Origin: an archaeon GW2011_AR10
GTDB taxonomy: Archaea; Iainarchaeota; Iainarchaeia; Iainarchaeales; GW2011-AR10
NCBI GenBank assembly: GCA_000830275.1
Contig: CP010424.1
Span: 540,001 to 572,000 of the forward strand
Length of the DNA stretch: 32,000 bases
Direction of reading: 5' to 3'
In this document: in pieces, positions 1,118-19,711 of the stretch
Layout of the letters: each line of letters begins with the position of its first letter
How positions within the stretch are numbered: the first letter of the stretch is position 1
Position numbers and translations under genes: made by a program
Notes under the pieces: model-generated
Database searches by the model: none
Told to the model about the DNA's origin: nothing
Seen by the model: only the letters and a program-made list of their open reading frames with translations

Positions 1118-1213
1118 CTATAGCAGGCGACATTAATTTTTGAACATTTATTGTAGCCTGATAGATAGCAAATGACCTTATTTGTTCAACTATTTTTGTC
1201 ATTTGCTATAACT
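1118..1213. repeat. Two-hairpin copy (types IV + I) of the CTATAG-bounded hairpin family
   Basis: Hairpin 1a: CAGGCGACA 1124-1132 pairs with TGTAGCCTG 1152-1160 (one mismatch); the loop contains TTAATTTTTGAACATTTA. Hairpin 1b: ATAGCAAATGAC 1165-1176 pairs with GTCATTTGCTAT 1198-1209 (12 bp, perfect). The copy ends in TTGCTATAACT (1203-1213). Confidence 0.8.
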
Positions 1214-1229
1214 GTTGAAGCCAGTCCTT

Positions 1230-1625
1230 CTAGATGATTTCTTTTTTTATGTTCGTGAATCTTTGAAAATGTTTGTCTTTTGTGAGCACAGTGAGATCGT
1301 TTTCCCCAGCGGTTGCAGCTATTATGCAGTCTATCAGGCCAACTTGGCGACCGCTCTTTTTAATGCCCTTATTGGCTTCGAACCACATCTTGCCAGCTGT
1401 GAATTCACCTGCACGGGAACTATTGAGAATTCCACTGCAGGAGGTTTCCACTCTTGGAAGTATCTGCGCTGCAGCAAAGTTGTTTGAGTGGCACCATTTG
1501 CTCATCTCCACTATTGTTACTGCACATGCATAGCGGTCTTTGCCTGCAATTTTTTTCATTGCGTTTTTTCCGCTTTCCGTTTCCCGAAAAATATCTATCC
1601 ATACGGATGTGTCAACCAAGTACAT
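1230..1625 (-). CDS. vapC: PIN-domain toxin (VapC family)
   Basis: The ORF track extends to 1652, but the ATG at 1625 gives MYLVDTSVWIDIF, a typical PIN N-terminus with the conserved Asp. It lies 1 nt after the stop of the upstream AbrB-type ORF. The later LIDCIIAATA and VLTKD segments fit the PIN fold. Confidence 0.8.
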   Translation of the reverse strand: MYLVDTSVWIDIFRETESGKNAMKKIAGKDRYACAVTIVEMSKWCHSNNFAAAQILPRVETSCSGILNSSRAGEFTAGKMWFEANKGIKKSGRQVGLIDCIIAATAGENDLTVLTKDKHFQRFTNIKKEII

Positions 1626-1626
1626 T

Positions 1627-1842
1627 TCAGAAAACCCTGTCTTTTTCCTCACGCTTAAATGGCTTTGCTCCCTTGGCTATGCCGAATAGTTCTGATAGAG
1701 CCCTTTCATTGTCCTGCCTTATGACGCTTATTTTCAATGTTTGGTTGAATTTCAGTTTGTTTTCTTTCAAATCCTTCTTTTTGATGGCAATTGCTGCAGA
1801 ATTGCCAAGCCTTACCACTTTGCCTTCAATCATATCAATCAC
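1627..1842 (-). CDS. vapB: AbrB/SpoVT-type antitoxin (VapB-like)
   Basis: 71 aa. GKVVRLGNSAAIAIKKKDL resembles the swapped-hairpin AbrB/SpoVT DNA-binding motif. It sits immediately upstream of the PIN gene on the same strand. Confidence 0.7.
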   Translation of the reverse strand: MIDMIEGKVVRLGNSAAIAIKKKDLKENKLKFNQTLKISVIRQDNERALSELFGIAKGAKPFKREEKDRVF

Positions 1843-1849
1843 CTATGTA

Positions 1850-1861
1850 ATAACTTGTTAT
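1850..1861. promoter_or_regulatory. Short inverted repeat ATAAC-TT-GTTAT upstream of vapB (candidate operator)
   Basis: A 5-bp-arm palindrome lies 8-19 nt upstream of the vapB ATG at 1842. AbrB-type antitoxins usually autoregulate through palindromes. The repeat is short, so support is weak. Confidence 0.25.
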
Positions 1862-1931
1862 AACTATTTTTAATATGTTTTGTGTCCTGCAAGACAGTTA
1901 GCTGCTGAGGAAGTTATGCGGATTTGTAAGG

Positions 1932-1939
1932 TTTTTATA
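1932..1939 (+). promoter_or_regulatory. TATA-like box (TTTTTATA) about 26 nt upstream of the 1962 ATG
   Basis: The spacing fits an archaeal TATA box driving a leaderless or near-leaderless mRNA. No Shine-Dalgarno-like purine run lies between the box and the ATG. Confidence 0.45.
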
Positions 1940-1961
1940 GTGGTTTTATGTATTTTTTTCT

Positions 1962-2660
1962 ATGGTAAAGCAAGCATTCATTCTCGCAGGCGGTAAAGGG
2001 GAAAGGCTGAAGCCATTAACGAACGAAATGCCTAAACCCCTGTTGGATGTGGATGGCAAGCCGATACTGCAGCACGTAGTGGAGGGGTTAACGGAGCAAG
2101 GCATTAATGAAATCGTGCTCGCGGTTGGCTACAAGCACGAAAAAATCAAAAAATTTTTTGGAAGCGGAGAAAAATTCGGCGCAAAAATCAAGTACATTGT
2201 TGAAAAAGAATTTCTAGGCACTGGAGGGGCGCTTAAAAACGCGGAGCGAATGCTACACGAAAGGTTTTTGATGCTGAACGGCGACAATCTTGCTGATTTT
2301 GATTATAGTGCAATGGAGAAACTGCACGAACAAGAAAAAGCGCTTGCAACAATTGCATTGGTGGAAGTTGCAGACCCCAGCGCATACGGAGTAGCAGAAC
2401 TCCAAGGAAAAAAAATAATCAGGTTCATTGAAAAGCCCCCTAAAGGAAAAGCGCCAAGCAACCTAATCAATGCCGGGGCATACGTGCTGGAAAAAAAAGC
2501 GCTGAAATTCCTGCCAAGCGGTTTTAATCTGATTGAGAAAACGCTTTTCCCTGAGCTCGCAAAACAGGATAGGCTCGCTGGTTACAGGCATTCAGGAAAA
2601 TGGTTTGCGCTTGACACAAAAGAAAAACTTGAGGAAGCAAAGCGCGAGTGGAAAAAATAG
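1962..2660 (+). CDS. Sugar-1-phosphate nucleotidyltransferase (short NTP_transferase type, Glc-1-P/Man-1-P family)
   Basis: The N-terminal signature is AFILAGGKGERLKPLTNEMPKPLL (GxGxRL...K). LMLNGDN and INAGAYV are typical of the family. 232 aa. Confidence 0.85.
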   Translation: MVKQAFILAGGKGERLKPLTNEMPKPLLDVDGKPILQHVVEGLTEQGINEIVLAVGYKHEKIKKFFGSGEKFGAKIKYIVEKEFLGTGGALKNAERMLHERFLMLNGDNLADFDYSAMEKLHEQEKALATIALVEVADPSAYGVAELQGKKIIRFIEKPPKGKAPSNLINAGAYVLEKKALKFLPSGFNLIEKTLFPELAKQDRLAGYRHSGKWFALDTKEKLEEAKREWKK

Positions 2661-2670
2661 CCGGGAAATG

Positions 2671-2687
2671 AAAAGCAACCTGCTTTT
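2671..2687. terminator. Small hairpin AAAAGC-aacct-GCTTTT between convergent genes
   Basis: A 6-bp perfect stem with a 5-nt loop lies in the 44-nt gap between the 2660 (+) and 2705 (-) gene ends. The T-run on the + strand and A-run on the other side make it a candidate bidirectional terminator. Confidence 0.3.
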
Positions 2688-2704
2688 ACAATTGCCACGC
2701 CAAA

Positions 2705-3076
2705 TTATTTAACGAATTCCACGTTTGGCATGCCTTCAAATGCTTTATCCCCTGTAACAAACATTAATCTGTTTTCTTTTGCCAGCACATAACCTATAGA
2801 GTCAATGTAGGAAAACTTTTTCCTGGAATTTTCTTTTCTAAAAATCGCTATTTTTGAAACTTGGCCTTCCTGTATTTCGAGTGCAGTGAACTTCGTAGAA
2901 TCAAGTATTTTTAATGCATTTTCCTTTGAAAATGATTTAAACAAGTGATAGGCGACTTCCACAAGGTTAATTCTGGTTGAAAAAGGAATTGCACCTGAAA
3001 ACTTATCATAGTTCGGGTTGCCCCTGAGAATCTCGATTATTGCATAAGAGTCAAGAAAATAGCTTTTCTCTTTCAT
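2705..3076 (-). CDS. vapC: PIN-domain toxin (VapC family)
   Basis: SYFLDSYAIIEIL (N-terminal Asp) and FVTGDKAF near the C-terminus are typical PIN features. 123 aa. It lies directly downstream of, and overlaps, an AbrB-type ORF. Confidence 0.75.
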   Translation of the reverse strand: MKEKSYFLDSYAIIEILRGNPNYDKFSGAIPFSTRINLVEVAYHLFKSFSKENALKILDSTKFTALEIQEGQVSKIAIFRKENSRKKFSYIDSIGYVLAKENRLMFVTGDKAFEGMPNVEFVK

Positions 3077-3290
3077 GGTCCTCTTCCCTAAGTTTGCCCT
3101 TTAGTTTTTGCGCATCTATTTTCCAGCCAGCGGCAAGGCCGAAAAAATCCTTCACCGTTGACTTTTTTTCCTTATGAAAGTCTATGAAAAATTTTTCATT
3201 TTCTTTGATGCCTTCTTTTTCTACGGCTTCCTTTGGCAAGGTAACACCCAAAGAATTCCCCCATTTTCTTGCTATAACTTCTACTTCCAT
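3051..3290 (-). CDS. vapB: AbrB/MazE-type antitoxin (VapB-like)
   Basis: The motif is ARKWGNSLGVTLPKEAVEKEGIKE (SpoVT/AbrB fold). 79 aa. Its 3' end overlaps the PIN gene start by 26 nt. Confidence 0.75.
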   Translation of the reverse strand: MEVEVIARKWGNSLGVTLPKEAVEKEGIKENEKFFIDFHKEKKSTVKDFFGLAAGWKIDAQKLKGKLREEDHEREKLFS

Positions 3291-3301
3291 AAAAACACCT
3301 A

Positions 3302-3325
3302 AATATAATTTGATATAATTATATT
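3302..3325. promoter_or_regulatory. Inverted repeat AATATAATT-N6-AATTATATT upstream of vapB (promoter/operator candidate)
   Basis: 9-bp perfect arms lie 12-35 nt upstream of the 3290 start. The repeat overlaps TATA-like sequence on the minus strand. Confidence 0.4.
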
Positions 3326-3393
3326 AAAAACCTTTCTTCATCGCTTCACTCGCCAAAAAATTTCGGAAGCAAAGCGCGGGTGGAACTAAGCAG

Positions 3394-3873
3394 CTATTTT
3401 CTTCTCCTGAACCTGCTGCGCAGCTTTGCAAAAACAGATTTTTTGCGCAGAGATGATTCACGGCGTTGTTTTTGCAGTTTCTTCAAGTCAAGCGGCGCTG
3501 GAACCTTCAATATTTCTCCAAGTCCGCCAATTGACCCCCTCTTTATTTCTCTGGCCAAGAGTCTTTTACCGGACTGTGAAAGTCTCACCGAATTCATTAT
3601 AGGAACAATTGTCGTGCAGCCCTTTGATTTGCCCCACTTAATAACTCTAACGAGAAGCTCCTGCATAGGAGTTCTGCCTTCGCCAGTAACTTTCTTGGTT
3701 AATCTGAAAAAAGAAAGATTTGAGCTAATATTTTCAGATCCGATTGATGTAATGACAATAAAATTGCCGGGTGCATCTACAGCATGTAAAGCAGCAACTA
3801 TTTTTCCATTATCATAAAACCGAAACCCAACTCCATTTCCAAAATGAAATTCCCTTATTTCAAACCTCGCCAT
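3394..3873 (-). CDS. Hypothetical protein, weakly GNAT-like core with a strongly basic C-terminal tail
   Basis: ATG start. TGEGRTPMQELLVRVIKWGKSKGCTTIV loosely resembles GNAT motif A. The tail is QKQRRESSLRKKSVFAKLRSRFRRRK. The antisense ORF 3380..3817 looks like a shadow frame. Confidence 0.55.
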   Translation of the reverse strand: MARFEIREFHFGNGVGFRFYDNGKIVAALHAVDAPGNFIVITSIGSENISSNLSFFRLTKKVTGEGRTPMQELLVRVIKWGKSKGCTTIVPIMNSVRLSQSGKRLLAREIKRGSIGGLGEILKVPAPLDLKKLQKQRRESSLRKKSVFAKLRSRFRRRK

Positions 3874-3907
3874 AATATAATTAAACGATTCCGAGTATTA
3901 AACATTT

Positions 3908-3946
3908 CTTATAAAGGAATCTTATAAAGGAATCTTATAAAGGAAT
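3908..3946. repeat. Perfect tandem repeat, 3 x 13 bp (CTTATAAAGGAAT)
   Basis: Read directly from the sequence. Each unit carries TTTATAA on the minus strand (TATA-box-like). The nearest unit lies about 36-42 nt upstream of the 3873 ATG. Confidence 0.9.
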
Positions 3947-4208
3947 GACCAAACAAAATCTAGTGCGGTAAAACCTCGGAAAAGAGCCAGATTGATGCAA
4001 GCGCAACAGCAACCAAAAAAACTTCCGCCGTGTTAAGGTTGATGCCGCAAATTATTGGGCTGTGCAGCTCAACCCAAGGCAGAAAATCAAGAAAAATTAT
4101 TGCCAAAAAGGTTATGTATATCCATCAATTTTTCCCGGAAAGTTGATCGCCGGCAAAAAATAATTTTTTTTGATTATGTATCAGAACAATATCAAGGTTT
4201 TTAAAAAG

Positions 4209-4216
4209 TTTTATAC
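4209..4216 (+). promoter_or_regulatory. TATA-like box (TTTTATAC) upstream of the surface-protein gene
   Basis: It lies about 35 nt upstream of the TTG at 4247 and about 50 nt upstream of the TTG at 4262. An A-rich stretch precedes it. Confidence 0.35.
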
Positions 4217-4246
4217 ACGCTTTACTTTAATTTCTCGTGCTTTTAT

Positions 4247-7200
4247 TTGGGGGAAACACAATTGAGTCATGCTAAACTGTTCCTTTGCCTTTTCCTGCTC
4301 TTCGGAGTGCTGCAGGTTTCAGCTGCAGTTCCAAGCGTTTCAGTTGTGAGCCCAAGCGCTGACGGCAACTATCTAAAAGGCACAGCCGGCATTGTTTTCA
4401 CTGTTTTGGACTCTGATGCGCCAGCAGACATTAACGCGAACATATATTATAGCAGTTCAGCTGGAGCGCACACCAATGCAGTTCAGCTGAATTATGCCTT
4501 GAACGCCTCCAGTTGCGATGGCACAGACTTCACCTCAACAAGAACCTGCTCTTACAGCTGGAACACAACAGGAGCAGCTGACGGGAACTACTTTATTGAT
4601 GTTAACGTTGTAACAAGCATTGACTCCGCGGAAGACTCCTCTGACAACGATTTCAGGGTTGACAACACTGCTCCTTCAACAAGCTCTGATGTTAATTCAG
4701 GCACATGGCAAAAATTTGATTTCACAATTACTCTTACTTGCACAGACTCTGGCGGCTGCTCTTCCACTGCTTACAGGGTTGATTCAGGAGCATGGAGCAC
4801 TGGCAACAGCGTTTCCATAACAACTGACGGCAACCACCAAGTGGATTTCAATTCAACAGACCTTGCTAGAAACGTGGAAAGCACTAAAACTGTTTACGCT
4901 TTGCGCGACACAACCATTCCAACGATTTCTATTTCATCTCCTGCAAATGGGAGCACAACTTCAGGCAACACAGTTGCATTTGACTTAAATGATGCATTGG
5001 GAGCAGTTAACCTGAGCAGCATTGCGGTTGACATTAACGGCACTGCCTCAACTGCATTCAGTTCAAGCAGTTGCTCTGATGTAAACGGCCAAGCGCACTG
5101 CTCTTACACTGAAACAAAGTTTGACACAAACAGTGCTGACTACAATGTTGCTGTGAGAGCCTCAGACAAGGCAGGCAACAAGGCAGCACAAGCTCAATCC
5201 TTGTTCAAATACCTTGACTCTGCTGCTCCAAGCCAAGTAACAGGCTTTACTTCCGCCTCTGGCAACGGGCAAATCCAATTGAGTTGGACTGCTAACAGCG
5301 CAACAGACCTAAACCATTACAATGTTTACATGAGCACTTCATCTGGCTTTGCAACTGACGGCAACACTTTAATCGCTGTTGTTGCTGCCGGCACAAATTC
5401 TTACACTAAAACAGGCCTAAGCAACGGGACAACCTATTACTTTAAGGTCAGCGCTGAAGACAAAACAGGGAATGAGGGAGCAGACTCTGACCAGATAAAT
5501 GCGGCTCCAACCGCTGGCGGCTCTGGTTTAAGCTCTCCAAGCATTTCAAGTTCAACCCACACGCATGACTCTTGGAGCACTAACAACCTGCCTTCTTTTT
5601 CTTGGGGCTCGGTTTCAGGCGCTGACAACTACAGCTACGAATTCAACCAGTCAAGCGATTCAACGCCTGACACTTCATCTGACACTTCGGGCACTTCTTA
5701 CAGCCCCGGCACCAAAGATGATGGCATATGGTATTTCCATGTGAGGGCGTGCGCTTCAGGAAGCTGCGGGAGCACCTCGCATTTCACTGTTAAGATTGAC
5801 ACTACCGGGCCAGAGCAGGTAACTGACCTGACAATCAACGCTAATGCTGATGGCACAATGGACCTTGAATGGGATTCAGCATCTGACAGGCCATCAGGCA
5901 ACAACTCTGGAGTGAAAGAGTACTGGGTTTACAGGGACAACGAAAATGATTTCAGCGTGAGCAATACAAAGAGGGTTGGCATTACCAGTTCAAGCAATTT
6001 CACTGATGACGGCAGTGACCTCATAAAAGATGTAAGGTATTATTACAAGGTGCGGGCAGTTGACAACGCAGGAAACTCTGGCCAGATAAGCGCTGAGGTT
6101 TCAGCTCAGGCGAGTAAGACTGGCGCATGCGACTTTGATGTTTCATTCAGCTTTGACGAGTTTGTCGGCTCCGGCAAAATAACAGTTGGGGCAAGCTCTA
6201 ATTCCTCAATGTCAGACATTGTTTTCAGGCTGCGAGTTCCGGGAATTGGCTACCTTAAAGAGGAAAGCATTGACTCTTCCTCCAGAAGCGTAACAGCAAC
6301 GTATGATGTTAACTCTAACTTTGACGGGAAAACAGCGGAGTTTTCTTTGAGCGCAAAGGACAACTCTGGCAATGAATGTTTTTTCAGGGCTACGCCAAAA
6401 ATTGACGGCAAAGCCCCTTCGGTTGACTGGCTGAGCCCATTAGAAGAAGCAGAGCTTGACTTGAGCAGGGAGCAGTCACTTGAAGTGAGTGTAACTGATG
6501 AAGGCTCCGGAGTGAAAGAGGTTGAATTTTTTTACGATAGCGGTTCAGGGTTTGTTTCATTAGGGAAAGATTCAAGCGGTGTTTCAGGCAAGTATTCAAT
6601 TGAAACTTCAAGCATTCAGGCAGGAGAGAACGGCTTAAAGCTGAAAGCAGTTGCAACTGATAATGCTGGAAACGAAGCGGAAGCAGAAATCCAAACATCG
6701 GTTGAGCGTGCCTCAATTGTCGTGCTTACTTCAAACCAGAAAGAGTACGGAAGCCAAAGCTTTAATTACTCTGATGCAGACATTCCAACACTGCTTGCTG
6801 ATGCAGGACTCCAAGATTCGCTGATTGAAGAAGCTGAAGCCCTGTTCAATGAAAACACTGTTGAAAGGAACCTTGTTGTTTTAGAGGAAAATGGAACATT
6901 CACTGCAAGCGTTATTTTAATCGTGCGCAACAATTCAGCTGAAACACTTGACTTGCAGGTGGTTGAGGTTATTCCAAAAGAGTTCGCGCAGAAAGCTTCT
7001 GATATTGAGTCAAGCCGCTCTTTTGATGTTTTAAACTCTGATCCCGTAATAAAGTTTTTGCTGGAGGGCATTGAACCTGATGAAACGATTCTGATAACAT
7101 ATCAGTTGAAGGGTTCATTTAGTCAAGCAAAAGCAGACAGCATTCTTTCAAGTAGCATGACTGAAAAGTTCGCTGCTCCCCCAATAGTTCTCGGAGCAGA

Positions 7201-7474
7201 CAGTGAACTGGGAGACAGCTTTAAAGAAGAAACATCTCTTTCAGGGTTTTTGGCGCTCATTGCTTTAATCATTGTTTTGCTGGTTGCCATAATTGTTTTG
7301 CTGGCTGTTCTCGGCGGCGGCCTGTTCCTGCACCAAAGGAAAAGGCAAGGATTTGGGGCAACAACTGCACTGCACTATAGGAGGGACGACATGTTCGGAA
7401 AATTAAAGAAAGCACTCGAAGGGCAAGAAGTTATAGGGCCTAAACGAGGCAAGTTCGCTTGGAAAGGCAAATGA
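4247..7474 (+). CDS. Large cell-surface (S-layer-like) protein with Ig/FN3-like repeats and a C-terminal TM anchor
   Basis: It has a signal-like segment LFLCLFLLFGVLQVSAAVP. Ser/Thr/Asn/Asp-rich beta repeats include GTNSYTKTGLSNGTTYYFKVSAEDKTGNEG and VRYYYKVRAVDNAGNSG. A single C-terminal TM (LALIALIIVLLVAIIVLLAVLGGGLFL) is followed by a basic tail. The track start is TTG; the in-frame TTG at 4262, preceded by GGGGG, is an alternative start. Confidence 0.85.
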   Translation: MGETQLSHAKLFLCLFLLFGVLQVSAAVPSVSVVSPSADGNYLKGTAGIVFTVLDSDAPADINANIYYSSSAGAHTNAVQLNYALNASSCDGTDFTSTRTCSYSWNTTGAADGNYFIDVNVVTSIDSAEDSSDNDFRVDNTAPSTSSDVNSGTWQKFDFTITLTCTDSGGCSSTAYRVDSGAWSTGNSVSITTDGNHQVDFNSTDLARNVESTKTVYALRDTTIPTISISSPANGSTTSGNTVAFDLNDALGAVNLSSIAVDINGTASTAFSSSSCSDVNGQAHCSYTETKFDTNSADYNVAVRASDKAGNKAAQAQSLFKYLDSAAPSQVTGFTSASGNGQIQLSWTANSATDLNHYNVYMSTSSGFATDGNTLIAVVAAGTNSYTKTGLSNGTTYYFKVSAEDKTGNEGADSDQINAAPTAGGSGLSSPSISSSTHTHDSWSTNNLPSFSWGSVSGADNYSYEFNQSSDSTPDTSSDTSGTSYSPGTKDDGIWYFHVRACASGSCGSTSHFTVKIDTTGPEQVTDLTINANADGTMDLEWDSASDRPSGNNSGVKEYWVYRDNENDFSVSNTKRVGITSSSNFTDDGSDLIKDVRYYYKVRAVDNAGNSGQISAEVSAQASKTGACDFDVSFSFDEFVGSGKITVGASSNSSMSDIVFRLRVPGIGYLKEESIDSSSRSVTATYDVNSNFDGKTAEFSLSAKDNSGNECFFRATPKIDGKAPSVDWLSPLEEAELDLSREQSLEVSVTDEGSGVKEVEFFYDSGSGFVSLGKDSSGVSGKYSIETSSIQAGENGLKLKAVATDNAGNEAEAEIQTSVERASIVVLTSNQKEYGSQSFNYSDADIPTLLADAGLQDSLIEEAEALFNENTVERNLVVLEENGTFTASVILIVRNNSAETLDLQVVEVIPKEFAQKASDIESSRSFDVLNSDPVIKFLLEGIEPDETILITYQLKGSFSQAKADSILSSSMTEKFAAPPIVLGADSELGDSFKEETSLSGFLALIALIIVLLVAIIVLLAVLGGGLFLHQRKRQGFGATTALHYRRDDMFGKLKKALEGQEVIGPKRGKFAWKGK

Positions 7475-7540
7475 GTAACCCGCCAATCCAAAAATAGAAA
7501 AGCCCAATCAAAGCATTTAGCTTGCGCAACCACTAAGAGT

Positions 7541-7627
7541 TATAGCAAAATGCTTATGTGTTTGAATTAAAATCGCATTTTGCAACCAGCAAATTAAATG
7601 TTCAAAAATTAAAGCTGTTTGCTATAG
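7541..7627. repeat. Two-hairpin copy (types II + III, inverted orientation) of the CTATAG-bounded hairpin family
   Basis: Hairpin 3a: GCAAAATGC 7545-7553 pairs with GCATTTTGC 7575-7583 (perfect). Hairpin 3b: GCAACCAGC 7582-7590 pairs with GCTGTTTGC 7614-7622 (one mismatch). The 3b loop is the reverse complement of the TTAATTTTTGAACATTTA motif. A T8 run follows at 7637-7644. Confidence 0.8.
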
Positions 7628-7693
7628 TTCCCAAACTTTTTTTTGCACCCCGTTTTCGGCTTATGGAAATCAGGTGCTTTGGCTTTAAGGCAT

Positions 7694-8767: not shown

Positions 8768-8832
8768 GGTTTCGCCTTGCCCTATTTTTCCAACAAGGTT
8801 GCTTTAAACAATTTGTTTTTCAAGGTTTCTGG

Positions 8833-8841
8833 TTTAAAATA
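8833..8841 (+). promoter_or_regulatory. TATA-like box (TTTAAAATA) about 33 nt upstream of the 8870 ATG
   Basis: It lies in the 100-nt divergent gap between the DegT and GT2 genes. A second palindromic TTTAAA at 8803-8808 lies about 38 nt from the DegT ATG on the other strand. Confidence 0.35.
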
Positions 8842-8869
8842 ATTTTCAGCCTAATAAGTTTTGGTCAGC

Positions 8870-12811: not shown

Positions 12812-13719
12812 TGTAAAAGGTTAATTTTTATGAGCTCCAAAACAAGTTTGGCGCGGGAAAAATTAAATAACAATACACTTACAATCAATTCCGCAATATT
12901 GCTAGGCAACACAACCAGTTTAAGCAAAACAAGGTTTAAGAGACCGTGGTGCTTCCTGAAAAACTTGTTTAAGTTAGTATAATACATTATGTATCTGGCG
13001 TCAGGCGTTTTGCTTGAAGCCCCGCCAAGATGGATGACCCTGCTGTCAGGGCTGAAGAAAATCTTCCAGCCTGCTTTCTTCATGCGGTAAAACCAATCAG
13101 TCTCTTCTACATAAACAAAGTAGTTTTCATCGAATCCTCCCACTTCTTCAATTGCCTCTCCACTAACAATATAGCACGCACCGGTGAAAGAGTCAACTTC
13201 CTGCAACTTATCGTAATTGAATTTTGTTTCAGCGAACCTTTTTCCAAGGAATGGAATGCGCAGCAGCAGCTCCCTTGAAACACTCGGGAAAGGGTGAACG
13301 TTTTTCTGAACGCTTTTGTCCTTGTTGAGGAGCTTGCAGGAAACCGCAGCGGCTTTTTCGTTTTGCTGCATGAATTCAACAATTGGTTTCAGGGAATCAA
13401 GGAAAATTATGTCGGAGCTGACAATTGCGATGAAAGGAGCATGAGATGAATGAATGGCCTGATTGAATGCTTTGCCAAAGCCAAGGTTTTCCTTATTGGC
13501 AATAAGTTTTGCTTTGGGAAACTTTTTTTTCACGAGCACAATGCTGCCGTCAGTGCTGCCGTTGTCAACCACAATTACCTCAAAACCAATATTATTTAGT
13601 TTTTTGTAAGCAGAATTAAGGCACTGCTCCAGCAAAGCCCTTGTGTTCCAGTTAACCACTGCAACAGTTAAAACTCTTTCCCCATTTTTGCCTGAAAAAG
13701 CTTTTTTTGGTTTTTCCAC
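12805..13719 (-). CDS. GT2 glycosyltransferase (rhamnosyl/galactosyl-transferase-like)
   Basis: LTVAVVNWNTRALLEQCL...VIVVDNGSTDGS and NLGFGKAFNQA are the motifs. 304 aa. Confidence 0.85.
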   Translation of the reverse strand: MEKPKKAFSGKNGERVLTVAVVNWNTRALLEQCLNSAYKKLNNIGFEVIVVDNGSTDGSIVLVKKKFPKAKLIANKENLGFGKAFNQAIHSSHAPFIAIVSSDIIFLDSLKPIVEFMQQNEKAAAVSCKLLNKDKSVQKNVHPFPSVSRELLLRIPFLGKRFAETKFNYDKLQEVDSFTGACYIVSGEAIEEVGGFDENYFVYVEETDWFYRMKKAGWKIFFSPDSRVIHLGGASSKTPDARYIMYYTNLNKFFRKHHGLLNLVLLKLVVLPSNIAELIVSVLLFNFSRAKLVLELIKINLLQW

Positions 13720-13759
13720 AAAAAGAAATTGCTATAAAAATATTAAAACCTGAACTGGT

Positions 13760-14476
13760 TCAGTTTCCTTTTGAGAAAAGTGTTTCAAGCCTTACGCGCA
13801 GCAGGTCGCGGGCGGTTTTCTTGATGCGGTTAAAGCCAAAGCACTGGCTGCTGCCGAATTCCCGTTCAAGGTGCTTCACCGGCACCTCCGCAATTTTGAA
13901 GCCGGCTTTCTTAGCCTTGTAAACCAATTCCGCACTGAAAAAACCGCTTTTTGAAGTAAGGGTTATTTTGTCGAAAATTTTCCTGCGCGCAAGCTTGTAG
14001 CTGCAATCAAGGTCCTTAACCGCAAAACCGAATGAAAGAAAAATGAGGAGCTTGTAGATTTTCTGGAAAAATTTTCTCTGGAAGCCTTCAACCCTGTTGG
14101 TTCTGTAGCCTATCACCAAATCTGCATCCTGCATTGCTTCCATAAATTTTGGCAGGTCTTCAACACTGTACTGCGCGTCACCATCAGTAAACCCAACGAA
14201 CTCTTTTTTGCCTGAAAGGAAACCGGTTGTTAGAGCCCCACCGTAATCCATGTTTTTTTCGTGGTGGATTACGCGCATTCTGCCGAGTTTTTTCGCAAGC
14301 TTTTCTGCGACCTCGCCTGACTTATCAGGGGAGGCATCATTTACAACAATCAGCTCGAAGTCGCGGCCGCTTTTTTTCAGAAAACTGTGAAATTTTGGGA
14401 CAATTTTTGGAAGCGACTTCTCATCATGGTAAGCCGGAAAGAAAAAAGAAACGCTTTCCATGCCTTCTGCAGCCAT
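13760..14476 (-). CDS. GT2, polyprenyl-phosphate glycosyltransferase type (GtrB/ArnC-like), paralog of 29378..30082
   Basis: SVSFFFPAYHDEKSLP...LIVVNDASPDKS and FTDGDAQY (DxD) are the GT2 motifs. The C-terminal PVKHLEREFGSSQ resembles the ArnC/GtrB HxxREFGxSK motif. Confidence 0.85.
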   Translation of the reverse strand: MAAEGMESVSFFFPAYHDEKSLPKIVPKFHSFLKKSGRDFELIVVNDASPDKSGEVAEKLAKKLGRMRVIHHEKNMDYGGALTTGFLSGKKEFVGFTDGDAQYSVEDLPKFMEAMQDADLVIGYRTNRVEGFQRKFFQKIYKLLIFLSFGFAVKDLDCSYKLARRKIFDKITLTSKSGFFSAELVYKAKKAGFKIAEVPVKHLEREFGSSQCFGFNRIKKTARDLLRVRLETLFSKGN

Positions 14477-14497
14477 ACCCTAATTTTTTCTCAATCC

Positions 14498-14517
14498 TAT
14501 TAAAAAATGTGATATCA
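14498..14517 (-). promoter_or_regulatory. TATA-like box (TTTTTTAATA on the minus strand) plus adjacent 8-bp palindrome TGATATCA
   Basis: The TATA-like centre is about 26 nt upstream of the 14476 ATG, a leaderless geometry. The palindrome at 14510-14517 lies just upstream of it and could be a regulator site. Confidence 0.4.
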
Positions 14518-14518
14518 T

Positions 14519-14536
14519 CCACACCCAAAGGTGTGG
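14519..14536. other. GC-rich hairpin alpha: CCACACC-caaa-GGTGTGG
   Basis: A 7-bp perfect stem with a 4-nt loop, read directly from the sequence. Confidence 0.7.
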
Positions 14537-14583
14537 GCTTCCTGCCACATGGAAAAGTCAAAAGGTAATTGAAGAGACTTTAT

Positions 14584-14607
14584 CCAACATCTGAAGATGT
14601 TGGTTTT
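14584..14607 (+). other. Hairpin beta: CCAACATC-tgaa-GATGTTGG followed by TTTT
   Basis: An 8-bp perfect stem with a 4-nt loop, then T4. Its 5' flank (ATCCA) and shape resemble hairpin alpha 65 nt upstream. Confidence 0.7.
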
Positions 14608-14663
14608 CGCCAGCCTCTTCCTAAAAGGCTGATGGAGTTTTTCGAAAGCACCCAAAGCAGAAT

Positions 14664-14848
14664 TATAGCAAAAGACATTAGTTTCGGTAATTTCTTAATG
14701 TCTTTTGCGACTATAGCAAACAGCCAATATTTTTGAACTTTTTATTGCTGTTTGCTAGATGCAAAACGCAGTTTCAATGTTCAATTACTTAAGCGTTTTG
14801 CTATAGCGAATGACTTGTTTTCTACCATTATTAAAGTCATTCGCTATT
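14664..14848. repeat. Array of four abutting different hairpins (types IV-III-II-I) joined by CTATAG
   Basis: A: 14668-14680 pairs with 14696-14708 (13 bp). B: 14714-14724 pairs with 14747-14757 (11 bp). C: 14761-14769 pairs with 14793-14801 (9 bp). D: 14803-14815 pairs with 14835-14847 (13 bp). All four stems are perfect. Junction hexamers are CTATAG at 14711-14716 and 14801-14806, and CTAGAT at 14755-14760. Confidence 0.85.
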
Positions 14849-14921
14849 AATAAAAACAATTGGAGACTAAAAGGGTTACAGGGCTTAACATAATCTTGCA
14901 AAAAAATGTCAGGCAAAAAGC

Positions 14922-15854
14922 ATGAAAAAAATGAAGCCATTTGTTTCAGTAGTAGTTGTAGGATTCAACGGCGAAAAGTTCATTGCAAAGCTGCTTGAAT
15001 CACTTGAAAGCCAGTCATACCCTAGAAACAGGTTCGAAGTAATTCTTGTGGACAACGCTTCAACAGACAATACTTCAAAAATTGCTGAGAGTTTCCAGAA
15101 GGCGGAAATAATTCAATTAAAAGAGAACACGGGTTTTGCCGCTGGAAACAATGAGGGAATAAAAAAAAGCAAAGGAGAATTTGTTGTTCTTGTCAGCCAG
15201 GACGTGTGGGTGGAAAAAAACTTTTTATCTGAACTGGTGAAAACAATGCAGGAAAAACCAGAAGCAGGAATTGTGGGAGCAGCAGAGCACCCATACGATG
15301 GAACAATTCCCAAGGCAAAAAAAATTGTTGAAAGCAGCTGGATGGGCGGCGGGGCAATGATGATAAGACGAAAAGCTCTCGAAGAAGAGCTCTTTGACGA
15401 AAACTATTTTGCGTACTGCGAGGACATGGACCTTTCCTGGAGAATGAAAATGAAGGGCTGGAGGATTTTTCTCAATACGGCTTCTATATGGCACCATGCA
15501 GGCTTTGACAGAAGCGACATAAGCAGTTGGGCTGCCGCAATTGCAATCAGAAACCGGGTTCTCTTATTGCTGACATACGGAAGCATGGGGCAAATTATAA
15601 AGTCGATTAATTTTATGGGAACTGCAAATTCGAATTCAAGCAGGGAAAAAAACAACTCTCATAAAAATAGAGGCTCCAGCTCAAGAGAAAAAAAGAAAGT
15701 TTCTTCACTCAGCCTATTTTTCTCTGTCCTGCCCTTATTGCCTTCAACCATTGCAAAAAGGTTTTCAGTTATGCAGAACAAAAAAGTTTCGCAGCAGGAA
15801 ATCGACTCGTGGATTCGGGAAACAGACAAGCAGCTGTGGGGGAAGGAAAGTTGA
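14922..15854 (+). CDS. GT2 glycosyltransferase with a low-complexity Ser/Lys/Asn-rich C-terminal region
   Basis: FVSVVVVGFNGEKFIAKLLESL...VILVDNASTDNT and NTGFAAGNNEG are the GT2 motifs. The C-terminal third contains NSNSSREKNNSHKNRGSSSREKKK. Confidence 0.85.
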   Translation: MKKMKPFVSVVVVGFNGEKFIAKLLESLESQSYPRNRFEVILVDNASTDNTSKIAESFQKAEIIQLKENTGFAAGNNEGIKKSKGEFVVLVSQDVWVEKNFLSELVKTMQEKPEAGIVGAAEHPYDGTIPKAKKIVESSWMGGGAMMIRRKALEEELFDENYFAYCEDMDLSWRMKMKGWRIFLNTASIWHHAGFDRSDISSWAAAIAIRNRVLLLLTYGSMGQIIKSINFMGTANSNSSREKNNSHKNRGSSSREKKKVSSLSLFFSVLPLLPSTIAKRFSVMQNKKVSQQEIDSWIRETDKQLWGKES

Positions 15855-16966
15855 AAAAACTTGCAAAAATTGCAGAGCTGGCCAAGGCAAAAGTAACTCC
15901 GCTTGACTACCTTCACAAAAAGGACAGAGGAAAACTGAACATTGGCTGGTGCTCTTACTTCCCTCCGTCAGAGAACGGGGTTGCAGCAGCAACATATTCT
16001 ATTGCAAATGCATTAAACAAAATGGCAGGGTTTTCAGTTTACGCGATTCCCGCAGATGGCCTTATTGACAGGAGCTTATTTCCGAACATGAAAGTTGCAA
16101 AAATTGATGACAAAGAACTTGATGCAGTAATTTTTTTCTGTCTTGGGGAAAAAACAATAAATTTTGTTGAAAAAAGCAAATCAAAAAATTTTGTCTGGCA
16201 AACGGTCCATGAACCCCCATTGACGGATAAATCTGAAAAACAAATATTTGAACAACTGAAGAAATTTGAAAACGTTTTTTTGGTATCCAAATGGGCAACG
16301 AAAGAGTACAATAAAGCTGGCGTGAAAGCAAAATACCTGCCCATCGCCGTAGATATAAATAAATTTGTGCCCAGAAGGAATGAATCATTTGAGGTTTTGT
16401 TTGTGAGCAGAATCCACCACTTCAAGGGCGTGATCACTTTCTTAAAAACAATTCCGCACGTTCTGAGAAACCATTCGCATGTGAAATTCAGGCTTCACGC
16501 GCCAATTGACAGGTTCTCTCCTCACTTGCATGAAATTTTGTCAGAAATTGAAAAAGCAAAGAAAGCTTATCCGAACAATTTTTTGTTTGAAGAATCGTGG
16601 ATTGATTATGATGAAATGCCTAAAAAGTACGCTAATTCAAGTGTTCTGGTTTTTCCTAGTGCCAGTGAAGGGTTTGGAGTGCCGCTGATTGAGGCAATGA
16701 GCTGTGGAATTCCCTGCATTGTTGCAGACAAGAAGCCGATGAATGAAATCATTGAAAACAATAAAACTGGTTTTTGTTTGCCTCAAAGAGAGAGAATTCA
16801 TGACCACTTTTTCCCAAGCGCGGAAGAAATTTCTGAAAAAATAAATTATTTGTTTGAAAACAAATCTGTTTTTGAAAAAATGCAGCGGAACGCAAGGCAA
16901 AAAGCTGAAAAAGAATACTCTAGAGATGCAGTTTTGGAAAAACTAGTTAAAGAGCTGAGTAAATAA
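15809..16966 (+). CDS. GT4 (GT-B, Glycos_transf_1) glycosyltransferase
   Basis: The EX7E motif is EGFGVPLIEAMSCGIPCIV. No in-frame ATG lies upstream of the catalytic core, so the start must be GTG (15809 or 15836) or the TTG at 15851. The TTG forms a TTGA overlap with the upstream stop. Confidence 0.8.
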   Translation: MDSGNRQAAVGEGKLKKLAKIAELAKAKVTPLDYLHKKDRGKLNIGWCSYFPPSENGVAAATYSIANALNKMAGFSVYAIPADGLIDRSLFPNMKVAKIDDKELDAVIFFCLGEKTINFVEKSKSKNFVWQTVHEPPLTDKSEKQIFEQLKKFENVFLVSKWATKEYNKAGVKAKYLPIAVDINKFVPRRNESFEVLFVSRIHHFKGVITFLKTIPHVLRNHSHVKFRLHAPIDRFSPHLHEILSEIEKAKKAYPNNFLFEESWIDYDEMPKKYANSSVLVFPSASEGFGVPLIEAMSCGIPCIVADKKPMNEIIENNKTGFCLPQRERIHDHFFPSAEEISEKINYLFENKSVFEKMQRNARQKAEKEYSRDAVLEKLVKELSK

Positions 16967-17043
16967 AATCGAAATGCTTTTAAGCAGGAACACTGATTTT
17001 AAAAATTAGAGGAAATGTGTTTTGAAATTAGTCTTGTGATTGC

Positions 17044-17937
17044 ATGAGCAAAATCCTTATAACTGGCGGAGCTGGCTTTATTGGAACCAATTTGGCAGAG
17101 CACATGGAGGCTCAAGGCAATGAAGTACTGATTCTGGATAAGAGGAAAAGTAAATTCAGCCCTTCAATCAGGGCGGACGTTACAAAAAAAAATTGGCATT
17201 CAAAAGTTGGAAAACCCGAAATAATTTACCACTTGGCTGCAATTGTAGGAGTTGATTATGTTTCAACGCACCCATTTGAAACAATGAATACAGAAATTAT
17301 GGGAATCAACAATGTAATAAAATTCGCAGAAAGAACCAGGCCAGAAAAAATAATCTTTTCCTCCACCTCTGCTGTTTATGGAACAGCCTTACCAAATCAG
17401 TTTTTAAGCGAGGACATCAAAACTTTTCCCATTACAAGTTATGCGACAGCAAAAATAATGGCGGAACACTATCTCAAAGAAATGAAGAAAATCCACAATA
17501 TTGACTTTACAGTTTTAAGGTACTTCAATGCCTATGGAAAGTACCAGGACCCAAAAATGGTTATTGCAAGATTTATGGAAGCTGCAAAAGAAAGCAAGCC
17601 AATAGTTGTTTTTAATAACGGAGAACAGACAAGAGACTTTACATATATTGACGATGTAATGAAAGCAACAGAACTGGTTGCCTTCACCGACAAAACAAAT
17701 AGCCAAATCATTAATGTTGGAACAGGTGTGGCAACAAAAATCAGAGATGTTGCCTTGCTGGTTAAAAAGATTTCCGGTTCTCAATCAAAAATTTTATTTG
17801 AAAAACCACCAGAACCAAGAGAACATTTTGAAATACAGAGAAGGGTCTGTGACAAGCGAAGGCTGAAAAAACTAATTGGGTTTGAATGCAAAACAACTTT
17901 GAGCCAAGGATTAAAAAAGCTCATGCAAGAACAATAG
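17044..17937 (+). CDS. NAD-dependent epimerase/dehydratase (extended SDR, UDP-sugar 4-epimerase/decarboxylase-like)
   Basis: The motifs are ILITGGAGFIGTN and YATAKIMAE (YxxxK). 297 aa. Confidence 0.85.
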   Translation: MSKILITGGAGFIGTNLAEHMEAQGNEVLILDKRKSKFSPSIRADVTKKNWHSKVGKPEIIYHLAAIVGVDYVSTHPFETMNTEIMGINNVIKFAERTRPEKIIFSSTSAVYGTALPNQFLSEDIKTFPITSYATAKIMAEHYLKEMKKIHNIDFTVLRYFNAYGKYQDPKMVIARFMEAAKESKPIVVFNNGEQTRDFTYIDDVMKATELVAFTDKTNSQIINVGTGVATKIRDVALLVKKISGSQSKILFEKPPEPREHFEIQRRVCDKRRLKKLIGFECKTTLSQGLKKLMQEQ

Positions 17938-17938
17938 A

Positions 17939-19549
17939 TTACCAAATCTTTTCCGAATAAAGAGAAGCATAGTTGCCATATTTCTCTGTGAATAAAATAT
18001 CATATTCATTTACATCAAGTTGTTGTATAGAATTTTTCCCATTTTTCGATGAAATAAAAAGCAAATCCTTATTTTCTCTTTTAACTACTGCAGCTAGTGA
18101 CTGTGCTTGAGGCAATTCATCCTTTAAGTTTAGGTAAGCTGTTTCACTAAGCACGATTAAATCTGCTTTTTCCGCAGTTCTATTGAAAAAATCCCTGAAT
18201 TCACTCAAACTTAAATCGTATTCTGCAATTGGTTCTCTGCCGAAATAAATTCTGGCCACAGAAGGCTCGAAATCTGTTAATATTAAAACTTCCTCTGAAA
18301 AATTTTCCCGAATAAAATAACCGGCTGTCCTAAGGCCCCTTCCCGCAGAATTTTCGAGGTCATTTGCCACATATGTCGGGGTAAAAAAATAAGAGAAAGT
18401 TACAATAATGAGAAGAAAAGCTGCAAAAGGCGACAAAAAATGGATACGCAAATTATTTGTTTTTTTTCTAATAAAATCAAAAAGATCAGTCAACAAAATT
18501 GACGCAAGAATTGTGGATGAAAATGCCGCACCGATGAGGTACATGCCTGGCCCTGTTAAAGATGGCGGGAGCAGAAAAAAGTAAGGGATTGAATAAACAA
18601 GAAACCAAATGAAAAAAATGCTTTTTTTCTCAAGCCTTATAGCTGAATAAAGACCAGTAAGTAACGAGAAAGGCAATAATAGCAGTAATGCGCCGCCAAG
18701 ATAATCTTTCAATAATCCGAGAATATAAAAAACATAAAAGCCAGGAGAGAGAGTCTTCTCCAAGAAATGCCCCAGAAAGCCATACTGGGGGGTTCCTTGG
18801 TTTGCGTAATAAAGGAACTGCAATAATACTGGTGAAAAAATTAGGAAAAAAATCACAAAAAATTTAGGGGAGAATATCAGAAATGTTTCTTTTATCCTAT
18901 CAAACAAATTTTTTCTATCCTGAAATAATAAGGAAGTAAATATAAGCAGGGGAATTATCCCCAAAAACTGGTTATCAGTTAAAAAATAAAGAGCGATTAG
19001 AAAAGGAGTAATAACTGAATACCTACTGCCTGAGGACTTTGCATATTCTGCAAAAAAGTAAAGCGAGGCCATTAAAAGGGTTGCTGCAATGAGCCAGTTT
19101 CCTCCGGGCCTGACTGATTGGATTATGTGAATTGGCAAAACGGTTACCAGCAAAGCAGAAAGAACAGCAGACTTTTCATTGTGGAATCTCTTAACAAAAA
19201 AGAATGCAACAATTGGGGAGATTGCCCCAAAAAAAATAAATGGCAACCTTAAAACAAATTCACTAAGAGGAATATTTAAAATTGAAAAAAATGCAACGTT
19301 TATAACTGTTACAAAAATTGTGAATGGCCCCCAACCGAATGCAGCCAATCTAAAAGAATAAATAATCAAATTTTCAATTGAAGGCTCATCAAAAAAATGA
19401 AAAAAATCCAATCCTGCAAGTAAAAAACCCGCATCATCACTAGTTGAAAAAGTCTGAAAGGCCAAGGGATAAAAAATGCTTAATAGCAACGAAAAAAAGA
19501 AAACAAACGACAAAAAAAGTAGAAGTTTACTGCCATGAAGCTTGTTCAT
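17939..19549 (-). CDS. Multi-pass membrane protein, putative GT-C-fold (ArnT/PMT-like) glycosyltransferase
   Basis: 536 aa. The first extracytoplasmic loop carries acidic residues (FSTSDDAGF). About a dozen hydrophobic helices precede a polar C-terminal domain. It lies downstream of a polyprenyl-P-type GT2 on the same strand. Confidence 0.6.
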   Translation of the reverse strand: MNKLHGSKLLLFLSFVFFFSLLLSIFYPLAFQTFSTSDDAGFLLAGLDFFHFFDEPSIENLIIYSFRLAAFGWGPFTIFVTVINVAFFSILNIPLSEFVLRLPFIFFGAISPIVAFFFVKRFHNEKSAVLSALLVTVLPIHIIQSVRPGGNWLIAATLLMASLYFFAEYAKSSGSRYSVITPFLIALYFLTDNQFLGIIPLLIFTSLLFQDRKNLFDRIKETFLIFSPKFFVIFFLIFSPVLLQFLYYANQGTPQYGFLGHFLEKTLSPGFYVFYILGLLKDYLGGALLLLLPFSLLTGLYSAIRLEKKSIFFIWFLVYSIPYFFLLPPSLTGPGMYLIGAAFSSTILASILLTDLFDFIRKKTNNLRIHFLSPFAAFLLIIVTFSYFFTPTYVANDLENSAGRGLRTAGYFIRENFSEEVLILTDFEPSVARIYFGREPIAEYDLSLSEFRDFFNRTAEKADLIVLSETAYLNLKDELPQAQSLAAVVKRENKDLLFISSKNGKNSIQQLDVNEYDILFTEKYGNYASLYSEKIW

Positions 19550-19573
19550 TGTCTCTGCCCAAAATAATTCAGC

Positions 19574-19580
19574 TATAAAA
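19574..19580 (-). promoter_or_regulatory. TATA-like box (TTTTATA on the minus strand) about 28 nt upstream of the 19549 ATG
   Basis: The geometry fits a leaderless archaeal promoter for the GT-C gene. Confidence 0.4.
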
Positions 19581-19608
19581 GAGAATAAAAAAGCTCTGCC
19601 AATCTACA

Positions 19609-19711
19609 TATAGTAAAAGAGTAAAAGACATTAATTTTTGAACATTTTATGGTCTTTTACTATCTATCAAGGACGATATTTGTCCAATTATTAATGCCCC
19701 TTGCTATAACT
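19609..19711. repeat. Two-hairpin copy (type IV + degenerate type I) of the CTATAG-bounded hairpin family
   Basis: Hairpin 5a: AGTAAAAGAC 19620-19629 pairs with GTCTTTTACT 19652-19661 (perfect). Its segment GACATTAATTTTTGAACATTT (stem end plus loop) is identical over 21 nt to 1129-1149. Hairpin 5b is weak: CAAGG 19668-19672 pairs with CCTTG 19699-19703. The copy ends in TTGCTATAACT (19701-19711). Confidence 0.75.

Follow-up and report, generated by a model that had tools for sequence, protein, structure and literature searches.

The stretch of DNA examined here (the window, 32,000 nt) comes from GW2011_AR10 (Ca. Iainarchaeum; Diapherotrites), one of the DPANN archaea (Diapherotrites, Parvarchaeota, Aenigmarchaeota, Nanoarchaeota and Nanohaloarchaeota), with a genome of 1.24 Mb. 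It spans a cluster of glycosylation genes that includes two PIN toxin pairs, and at four of its intergenic sites it carries hairpin units, 10 in all. The element to which these units belong is a double hairpin of ~95 bp: two stem-loop units of ~47 bp, inverted relative to each other and separated by a TA-rich spacer of 4-7 bp. Positions refer to the window unless a contig is named; L numbers designate other contigs.

Hairpin units of the window

The units share a single register, (C/T)TATA, G-C-A-A-A-x-y-z-C, a loop of 21-23 nt, G-z'-y'-x'-T-T-T-G-C and TATA(G/A), in which the first stem base is the G of CTATAG (Table 1). A preliminary description of this DNA had taken CTATAG itself for the outer frame. 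The hexamer is indeed frequent in the window (7 occurrences against 1.8 expected), but only 4 of the 7 are associated with hairpins, and the true frame is (C/T)TATA-GCAAA...TTTGC-TATA(G/A). The same description had listed at least 11 hairpins at four intergenic loci. The four sites stand, and the count becomes 10 units: a covariance model (R1), built from the 10 window units and run on the 32 kb with filters off, finds nothing besides them at E<0.5. The density of four loci in 20 kb is correct locally but does not carry over to the genome, R1 detecting no unit in the other 12 kb of the window or within 8 kb outside either window end. A loop sequence reported as identical at three places is confirmed there, the exact shared stretch being the 17-mer TTAATTTTTGAACATTT (1133-1149, 19631-19647 and, on the - strand, 7596-7612; 3 matches against 0.01 expected). 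Folded singly, the units are stable both as RNA and as single-stranded DNA (ssDNA), with DNA values of -9 to -12.6 kcal/mol and z-scores of -3.8 to -7.6.

Table 1. Hairpin arrays and units of the window. Stems are given as 5' arm/3' arm; scores are those of the covariance model.
Feature	Position	Strand	Stem	Loop	Bits	Remarks
Array 1	1118..1211					One double-hairpin element (1a + 1b) between convergent genes for a DUF6438 protein (end 1106) and a PIN toxin (end 1230)
1a	1123..1161	+	GCAGGCGAC/GTAGCCTGA	ATTAATTTTTGAACATTTATT; T-run, alpha class	53.9	7/9 pairs; decayed (two mismatches)
1b	1168..1206	-	GCAAATGAC/GTCATTTGC	TTGAAC on - strand	59.7	9/9 pairs; 12 bp including ATA/TAT flanks
Array 3	7541..7627					One double-hairpin element (3a + 3b, 2-nt overlap) between convergent genes for an Ig-domain surface protein (end 7474) and a DegT aminotransferase (end 7694)
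3a	7545..7583	+	GCAAAATGC/GCATTTTGC	Diverged	50.2	9/9 pairs
3b	7582..7622	-	GCAAACAGC/GCTGGTTGC on - strand	TTTAATTTTTGAACATTTAATTT; alpha	59.9	8/9 pairs (perfect in strain L003); decayed (one mismatch)
Array 4	14663..14849					Four units between divergent glycosyltransferase genes
4A	14668..14708	Uncertain	GCAAAAGAC(ATTA)/(TAAT)GTCTTTTGC	Atypical, without TTGAAC	44.2 (-), 28.6 (+)	13 bp
4B	14716..14755	+	GCAAACAGC/GCTGTTTGC	Alpha	54.8	
4C	14761..14801	-	GCAAAACGC/GCGTTTTGC	AGTAATTGAAC on - strand; beta		
4D	14806..14844	Uncertain	GCGAATGAC(TT)/(AA)GTCATTCGC	Atypical		14 bp
Array 5	19610..19711					One element (5a + decayed 5b) between two co-directional genes, both on the - strand
5a	19621..19660	+	GTAAAAGAC/GTCTTTTAC	Alpha	55.5	Stem position 2: C:G changed to T:A; identical stem in L171
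5b	19665..19704	-	Degenerate: GCAAGGGGC vs 3' arm minus one base	AATAATTGGAC; beta-type	44.5	Decayed (one base lost)

Two neighbouring features of these arrays are recorded as observations in their own right. Ahead of array 5, at 19612-19630, TATAGTAAAAG followed directly by AGTAAAAGAC forms a 9-nt duplicate of the 5' arm of 5a, which displaces the TATA flank of that unit. To the left of array 4, at 14500-14640, lie three short perfect hairpins with loops of 4-9 nt (CCACACC-caaa-GGTGTGG, CCAACATC-tgaa-GATGTTGG and CAGCCT...AGGCTG), and similar short-loop hairpins are found beside or between units on other contigs (L141 6250-6300, L155 5050-5100, L176 990-1050, L135 750-800, L152 530-590 and L202 760-820). 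They may represent a second, unrelated class of hairpin repeat.

Covarying stems and inverted doublets

Changes on one arm of a stem are matched on the other. Across the 10 window units, 94% of the stem cells are paired and 7 of the 9 pairs change on both sides, a result reached by 0 of 500 shuffles. The comparison was then widened to 117 distinct units, drawn from the window plus 93 metagenome contigs. In this set 97.9% of the stem cells are Watson-Crick pairs (81.8% in shuffles), both-sided change is again seen in 7 of 9 stem pairs, and shifting the 3' partner by 1-3 columns leaves just 29-49% of the cells paired. At columns 12/46 and 13/45 all four pair types occur about equally (U:A, C:G, A:U and G:C at 33/29/27/25 and 41/28/27/15, respectively). 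Because the alignment had been fitted to the model, we ran a separate, unbiased test in which x, y and z were left unconstrained in the scan pattern: the two triplets were fully complementary in 44 of 57 distinct matches, where chance predicts 1/64, and 20 triplets were represented. The paired changes are therefore real. The compensatory changes put forward in the preliminary description are thus borne out, with high significance, in the window units, the 117 distinct units and the free-triplet test. Its individual pairings had also been read correctly, namely 1b (GCAAATGAC/GTCATTTGC) against 4D (GCGAATGAC/GTCATTCGC), 3a (GCAAAATGC/GCATTTTGC) against 4C (GCAAAACGC/GCGTTTTGC), and 3b, with its one mismatch, against 4B, as had the GACATTA common to 1a, 4A and 5a.

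An RNA selected on one strand should tolerate G·U but not A·C. Among the non-Watson-Crick stem cells, G·T occurs 10 times and A·C plus C·A 9 times; since G·T is no commoner than A·C, the constraint on the stem looks to lie at the level of DNA, not RNA. For lineage-level selection on DNA hairpins, the covariation evidence from this family is clean.

When orientation is read from the TTGAAC core, the two units of a pair follow one order without exception: '+ then -' in 48 pairs and the opposite in 0, with the same order in window arrays 1, 3 and 5 and in 4B-4C. Seen from its outer end, each half therefore shows the same polarity, as do the ends of a transposon. The stem triplet x-y-z is common to both halves in 0 of 40 distinct doublets, and 31 of 35 doublets combine one alpha loop, the T-run type ATTTTTGAAC, with one beta loop of the AATAATTGAAC type; a T5 run is available on each strand of every doublet. 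Because the halves differ in triplet and loop class, and because each stem covaries, we favour two separate hairpins over one long hairpin of the type proposed for repetitive extragenic palindromic (REP) doublets forming hairpins (REPINs). A single long hairpin is predicted for arrays 1 and 3 only, and there with internal loops. The left end of the element is T-W-A-T-A and its right end T-A-T-W-A, giving conserved termini TWATAGCAAA / TTTGCTATWA, and the flanks are random from ±6. One doublet departs from this layout in some copies: in L141 (6201-6348) and L145 (451-593), compared with L147 (3118-3203), the loop of one unit is flipped and the halves lie 59 nt apart, with short hairpins in between. 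The flip may reflect an inversion across the stem arms or a rearrangement.

Dispersed copies, their hosts and their decay

The family pattern ATAGCAAA NNN C N7-9 TTGAAC N7-9 G NNN TTTGC, with 3 matches in the window against 0.00 expected, identified at least 93 contigs in a scan of metagenomes; 26 assemblies are represented among the 80 matches listed, including Rifle and Hainich groundwater as well as sediments. On the 93 contigs R1 finds 173 units at E<0.01, compared with 0 matches in 743 kb of unrelated genome stretches that served as control. A scan of a genome collection with the 17-nt loop motif returned, among the matches listed, only chance matches in unrelated genomes, none of them family-like; viral contigs scanned with the family pattern gave no matches. 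On the window itself, Rfam 15 had 0 matches at gathering score and only sub-threshold chance matches around array 4, and a tRNA search found none. The hosts are GW2011_AR10 and relatives: family-bearing contigs are labelled at NCBI as Diapherotrites, Woesearchaeota, Nanoarchaeia or plain 'archaeon', and the elements neighbour unrelated archaeal housekeeping genes, such as those for A-type ATPase subunit D, archaeal FBPase, RtcB, tRNA synthetases, primase and a RecJ-like protein. Units lie almost wholly outside long open reading frames (ORFs). The 56 scored sites comprise 27 tandem, 18 convergent and 11 divergent spacers, and doublets show no orientation bias relative to transcription (7 vs 6).

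The doublet is the copied unit of this dispersed repeat; its boundaries are sharp and its copies nest. The CTG/GAG doublet is found in 12 flanking contexts (96% identity), the ACG/T(A/C)T doublet in 13-14 (99% identity; splitting 7 + 6 when counted as 13) and the TTG/TCT doublet in 6. Copies of 4B-4C are present in L160 (98.9% identity) and L171 (91.5%), contigs that otherwise share nothing with the window. Partners vary, the CTG unit being found with GAG, AAG, GGG or CCA; single units look like remnants of doublets, and arrays of 3-4 units occur. Array 4 is read as 4B-4C, with TATA on both sides, nested in the 7-nt spacer, of normal type, of an older 4A/4D element. In L168 a doublet of the main family sits inside the loop of another hairpin, and that loop is uninterrupted in L215. 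The surrounding sequence (L168 4560-4750, L215 1217-1313; the contigs are otherwise unrelated) is a different double-hairpin repeat, GAAAGACA..TGTCTTTC followed by TTTTAGTAGCGG..CCGCTACTAAAA, whose first loop holds the doublet in L168.

A doublet can itself be a target. In L161 (1491-3127) an unrelated insertion sequence (IS) lies inside a doublet of which L153 and L126 have intact copies; this IS encodes a 479-aa transposase with a weak DDE_Tnp_1 match, its inverted repeats are GCTGTGTTGCATAA and its target duplication is the 11-bp ATAGCAAATAT. The separated halves in L161 had been considered as a candidate autonomous element, which was rejected, the insert being this unrelated IS with its own inverted repeats and 11-bp duplication. 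Some bacterial IS also use REPs as insertion sites (PMC8450116).

Once inserted, copies decay. In the three largest families pairwise diversity amounts to 1.2% for stems, 1.8% for loops and 3.0% for spacers, and the within-family stem variants inspected are single, uncompensated changes, with no compensated change among them. A fixed A·G mismatch did not prevent one family from reaching 13-14 copies. The earlier claim of selection on the folded form is accordingly right between lineages but not for each copy, given that the stems of young families change uncompensated at ~2/3 of the loop rate. From this within-family decay, the copy number of the mismatch family, the lack of orientation bias and the occupation of all spacer types, the pattern is that of a selfish replicator whose copying needs the fold, with selection acting on lineages and not on each copy. 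It does not match a host element whose function is maintained at each site.

Close relatives of the window show what the repeats do between strains. Six contigs with the window's DegT gene are 99.8-99.98% identical to it, and the density of variable positions is 13 times higher within the arrays (15 per 368 nt vs 60 per 18,532 nt); 10 of these 15 derive from one replaced unit in L003. Synteny breaks at the outer edge of 4D (14847/14848; L005 3921, L006 134) in two independent assemblies. To the right of 4D the window has glycosyltransferase genes, and L005 and L006 have AliA, TRM5 and adenylate kinase genes instead. In L003, part of a metagenome-assembled genome, synteny stops between 3b and 3a; this junction may be an assembly mis-join, because another contig of the L003 genome ends inside 3b. 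An apparent 135-nt deletion of units at array 4 of L003 was rejected, as it corresponds to an NN scaffold gap. The same contig (14719-14799) has a 41-nt hairpin-containing unit (GAAAAGGTT ... AACCTTTTA) tandemly duplicated between a TBP gene and an aquaporin-family gene. Contig ends inside or beside repeats were observed at L225 15622-15665, at L006 1-134 and on the Hainich contigs L129, L148, L163 and L178. As many metagenome contigs end in or next to them, the repeats seem to break short-read assemblies of DPANN genomes, and they could cause mis-joins. As side effects of their presence, the repeats are hot spots of sequence variation and inter-strain rearrangement.

Further features of the surroundings were noted. 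PIN-domain toxin genes (1230-1873 and 2705-3290) flank a sugar nucleotidyltransferase gene, and array 1 abuts the 3' end of the first; a MazE-like antitoxin gene lies beside one PIN gene and a small unannotated ORF beside the other. Two paralogous family-2 glycosyltransferase genes (13760-14476 and 29378-30082), 15,606 nt apart, are 73-85% identical at the nucleotide level over stretches of 41-122 nt. About 4-7 kb to the left of the window start, L222 (3099-5774) encodes a UDP-glucose dehydrogenase with an intein and LAGLIDADG domain (891-aa product). Beside a doublet in L198 (3700-3790) and L226 (470-560), a ~90-nt stretch with long-range pairing between AACAATATTGTTCTCCG and CGTGGAGAACAATGTT might be a small RNA gene.

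Known systems and competing explanations

The hairpins are probably copies of a mobile DNA repeat found in DPANN archaea, a non-coding and non-autonomous double hairpin similar to the REPs and bacterial interspersed mosaic elements (BIMEs) of bacteria and copied only while its hairpins are intact. The two parts of this explanation differ in strength. That the family is a mobile dispersed repeat is very likely; that the DNA hairpin must be folded, and be read by an enzyme specific for hairpins, for copying to take place is in our judgement evenly balanced. New copies would land in TA-rich intergenic DNA, including the inside of older copies, which would give arrays such as 4A-[4B-4C]-4D. For copying, each unit would have to fold back into a DNA hairpin, in ssDNA or as a cruciform, and a protein supplied in trans would read the stem base (GCAAA/TTTGC), the closing C:G pair and the loop, and not the three base pairs between. 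Lineages would then drift at the three free pairs only through paired changes, and single copies would decay freely after insertion. The enzyme would most likely be a hairpin-specific single-strand nuclease or transposase of the histidine-hydrophobic-histidine (HUH)/Y1 kind, and the element would then work like REP, BIME and REPIN systems.

REP and REPIN-type elements are a classic and still poorly understood feature of bacterial genomes. Of the three roles envisaged in the preliminary description, the REP/BIME-like one is the best anatomical fit, although its Y1/HUH enzyme part found no counterpart in the available sequence. Common to both are many short intergenic palindromic stem-loop units, inverted hetero-dimers, clusters or arrays, complementary (covarying) stem changes, a tag at the stem foot, strain variability and use as IS targets, and the dispersed identical copies and the IS inside one copy fit this comparison too. 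Bacterial REP families in fact show complementary stem changes, head-head and tail-tail dimers, hetero-dimers of unlike stem or loop, clusters and strain variability (PMC3733652), which makes the earlier statement that no described repeat has such an architecture too strong. The family nevertheless differs from REP/BIME in its partner spacer of just 4-7 bp, in being AT-rich instead of GC-rich, in its archaeal host and in that no REP-associated transposase was found.

With the REPIN-RAYT system, in which a single-copy Y1/HUH transposase (RAYT, REP-associated tyrosine transposase), typically with repeats on its flanks, copies REP doublets, the family shares an inverted doublet of ~100 bp that multiplies, is non-coding and extragenic, exists in many near-identical copies and leaves single units as remnants. 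However, REPIN halves are near-identical and thought to form one long hairpin, whereas the halves here differ in triplet in 40 of 40 cases, and a RAYT was not found in ~0.55 Mb of element-bearing sequence or ~48 kb of the host genome. Two of the traits that define REPs and REPIN-RAYT systems, the tag and halves that are nearly identical, are lacking in the family. For archaea, a preprint states that no REPINs had been detected (bioRxiv 10.1101/2021.07.10.451892). A survey from 2025 describes intergenic palindromes of a generic kind in some Euryarchaeota and Crenarchaeota, but neither this family nor DPANN (PMC12306157), and our literature searches found no description of double-hairpin repeats in DPANN or AR10.

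Other mobile elements resemble parts of the anatomy. Mitochondrial hairpin elements (double-hairpin elements, repetitive hairpin-forming elements and GC clusters) have one or two hairpins, invade intergenic spacers, nest and mark points of rearrangement, and no dedicated transposase is known for them. The double-hairpin and hairpin-forming ones come closest in shape, but all belong to organelles, show no sequence relationship and are mostly GC-rich against an AT-rich background, unlike the present family with its conserved loops on an archaeal chromosome. IS608 carries two hairpins on the same strand and in the same orientation, and is asymmetric. Here the units are always inverted, and no TnpA motif is present in the ~0.55 Mb available. 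Otherwise the ends of IS200/IS605 elements and of palindrome-associated transposable elements (PATEs) are comparable, being subterminal hairpins recognized as folded ssDNA, without target duplication, in a family present in archaea (PMC6006769).

Several findings weigh against a hairpin-copying, REP/BIME-like repeat. Six-frame ORFs of at least 80 aa from the ~0.55 Mb of element-bearing contigs contain no HUH...Y motif. Pfam identified no transposase or recombinase among all large window ORFs, and no Y1_Tnp or other mobilizing gene among the matches listed for 140 element-adjacent ORFs. Clustering of 547 ORFs from the 93 contigs revealed no recurrent neighbouring gene, and an autonomous element with the same ends was not found in the ~0.55 Mb. 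Neither a RAYT or IS200-type TnpA nor a tyrosine recombinase, the enzymes originally proposed as worth seeking, was found in the sequence available, which for the host amounts to ~48 kb of 1.24 Mb. The REP tag is one-sided, GTAG (or CGTC), in contrast to the symmetric (T)ATAG / CTAT(A) found here, and ATAG is not among the listed GTAG variants (PMC3733652). REP loops are mostly 2-5 nt and at most ~20 nt long (PMC3733652), as opposed to 21-23 nt with a conserved 13-nt core. In Archaea, only IS200-type TnpA has been reported, not the RAYT classes (PMC6006769). Joined-flank probes searched against all sequence at hand yielded a single empty-site candidate, L168/L215, which is ~10% diverged, and no clean pair; two further look-ups, using the neighbour of a young family, met only occupied sites. 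Finally, an identical TWA stands on both sides of TAGC...GCTA at 30 of 51 sites, against 15 expected, a signal carried by two fixed-flank families.

This last observation bears on a different explanation, which we regard as unlikely: the doublet would be a classical MITE (a transposable element of miniature size with inverted repeats), its two ~47-bp halves being terminal inverted repeats of a lost or distant IS, moved as double-stranded DNA (dsDNA) by a DDE transposase with TA/TWA duplication, and the internal palindromy would be a binding-site feature or the product of arm-to-arm repair instead of a folded substrate. The halves share their polarity towards the outer end, as terminal inverted repeats do, T-W-A-T-A-G-C-A-A-A / T-T-T-G-C-T-A-T-W-A is conserved at the termini, and the small, non-coding element occupies TA-rich intergenic sites in young multi-copy families, all in the manner of a MITE for which TA/TWA duplication is possible. 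The nested 4B-4C has TA/TATA on either side, family A has mostly TA on both sides, and L215 is one base off the TA/TTA empty site predicted from L168 (TTGTTATGTC). The TWA excess is, however, pseudo-replicated: family B has TAA..TAA in one orientation in 13 of 13 copies, where a palindromic-strand target should give a mix, and family A has a TWA match in 2 of 11. We therefore rejected the apparent TWA duplication as firm evidence, on account of this family-level non-independence; given the fixed flank of family B and the 2 of 11 in family A, TWA may be part of the element. In contrast to a MITE, the doublet has almost no internal sequence and consists of two 47-bp ends, each a covarying palindrome. 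A parent IS with these ends was not found in the 0.55 Mb, the sole IS found having unrelated ends, and a dsDNA site leaves unexplained why triplets that are free to vary are complementary and never match those of the other half. The same complementarity at freely varying positions is left unexplained if the units are dsDNA binding sites of a host DNA-binding protein acting in nucleoid structure, replication or regulation, kept by the host and spread by recombination. Conservation of the 13-nt loop core and the stem bases extends over many contigs and the doublets are two-fold symmetric, as such sites might be, yet 99%-identical young families at unrelated sites denote recent copying, the sites are patchily distributed, with 4 in 19 kb and none in a further 29 kb, and copies such as 1a, 3b and 5b decay after insertion; we give this explanation very little credence.

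Oligo-T tracts terminate archaeal transcription. With a T5 run per strand in every doublet, stable RNA folding and at least one gene end facing the site in 45 of 56 scored sites, the units could be functional structured RNAs, acting as two-way transcription stops through their T5 loop runs, protecting mRNA 3' ends or producing a small RNA, and bacterial REPs are credited with such secondary roles (PMC3733652). We nevertheless consider this quite improbable, and the structured-RNA or 3'-end role suggested earlier is left without support: there is no excess of wobble pairs (G·T 10 vs A·C 9) and no orientation bias (7 vs 6), all spacer types are used, with 11 of 56 sites between divergent genes, Rfam gives no match, stems within families decay uncompensated near the loop rate and near-identical copies stand beside unrelated genes. 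Nor is there support for the third role considered at the outset, that of structure-specified recombination sites, integron attC- or dif-like, that delimit exchangeable cassettes of a glycosylation island. Recognition of folded DNA of variable sequence is known of attC, where the substrate is likewise a folded single strand and not a sequence, and paired changes keep the fold. The window is a variable glycosylation gene cluster, and differences in gene content start exactly at the outer edge of 4D in L005 and L006 and inside array 3 in L003. Against this, the family has no R/L boxes or R''/R' core sites (GTTRRRY), no extrahelical bases and no co-oriented, one-per-cassette layout, the units being neither one per gene nor co-oriented; most copies adjoin housekeeping genes and not cassettes; and neither the window nor its flanks encode an integrase or tyrosine recombinase. 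A mis-join may account for the L003 junction, and ordinary homologous recombination at dispersed repeats is expected to produce rearrangements. We hold recombination sites to be a highly improbable explanation.

Within the favoured explanation of a mobile double-hairpin repeat, a bolder version is tentative and rather doubtful: the family could be the first REPIN-like replicator in Archaea, a population of DPANN double hairpins that persists both vertically and horizontally and whose folded ssDNA hairpins are read by an enzyme other than a RAYT. The appeal to a non-RAYT enzyme follows from the fact that only IS200-type Y1 proteins are reported from Archaea; either a new nuclease specific for hairpins or a host protein that has been recruited could fill this role. 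The covarying top 3 bp of the stem and the obligatory unlike halves would then define the lineages of the element.

DPANN genomes are usually regarded as streamlined and repeat-poor. The family described here is sharply defined and abundant in very small DPANN genomes, that of the host measuring 1.24 Mb, with no known mobilizing enzyme in sight. In practical terms, its covariance model can be used for masking and annotation. The repeats can account for broken contigs and possible mis-joins in assemblies of DPANN genomes, and they can serve as markers both in strain typing and of hot spots of rearrangement within glycosylation islands. For the biology of these organisms, the family opens the question of what moves hairpin repeats in archaea.

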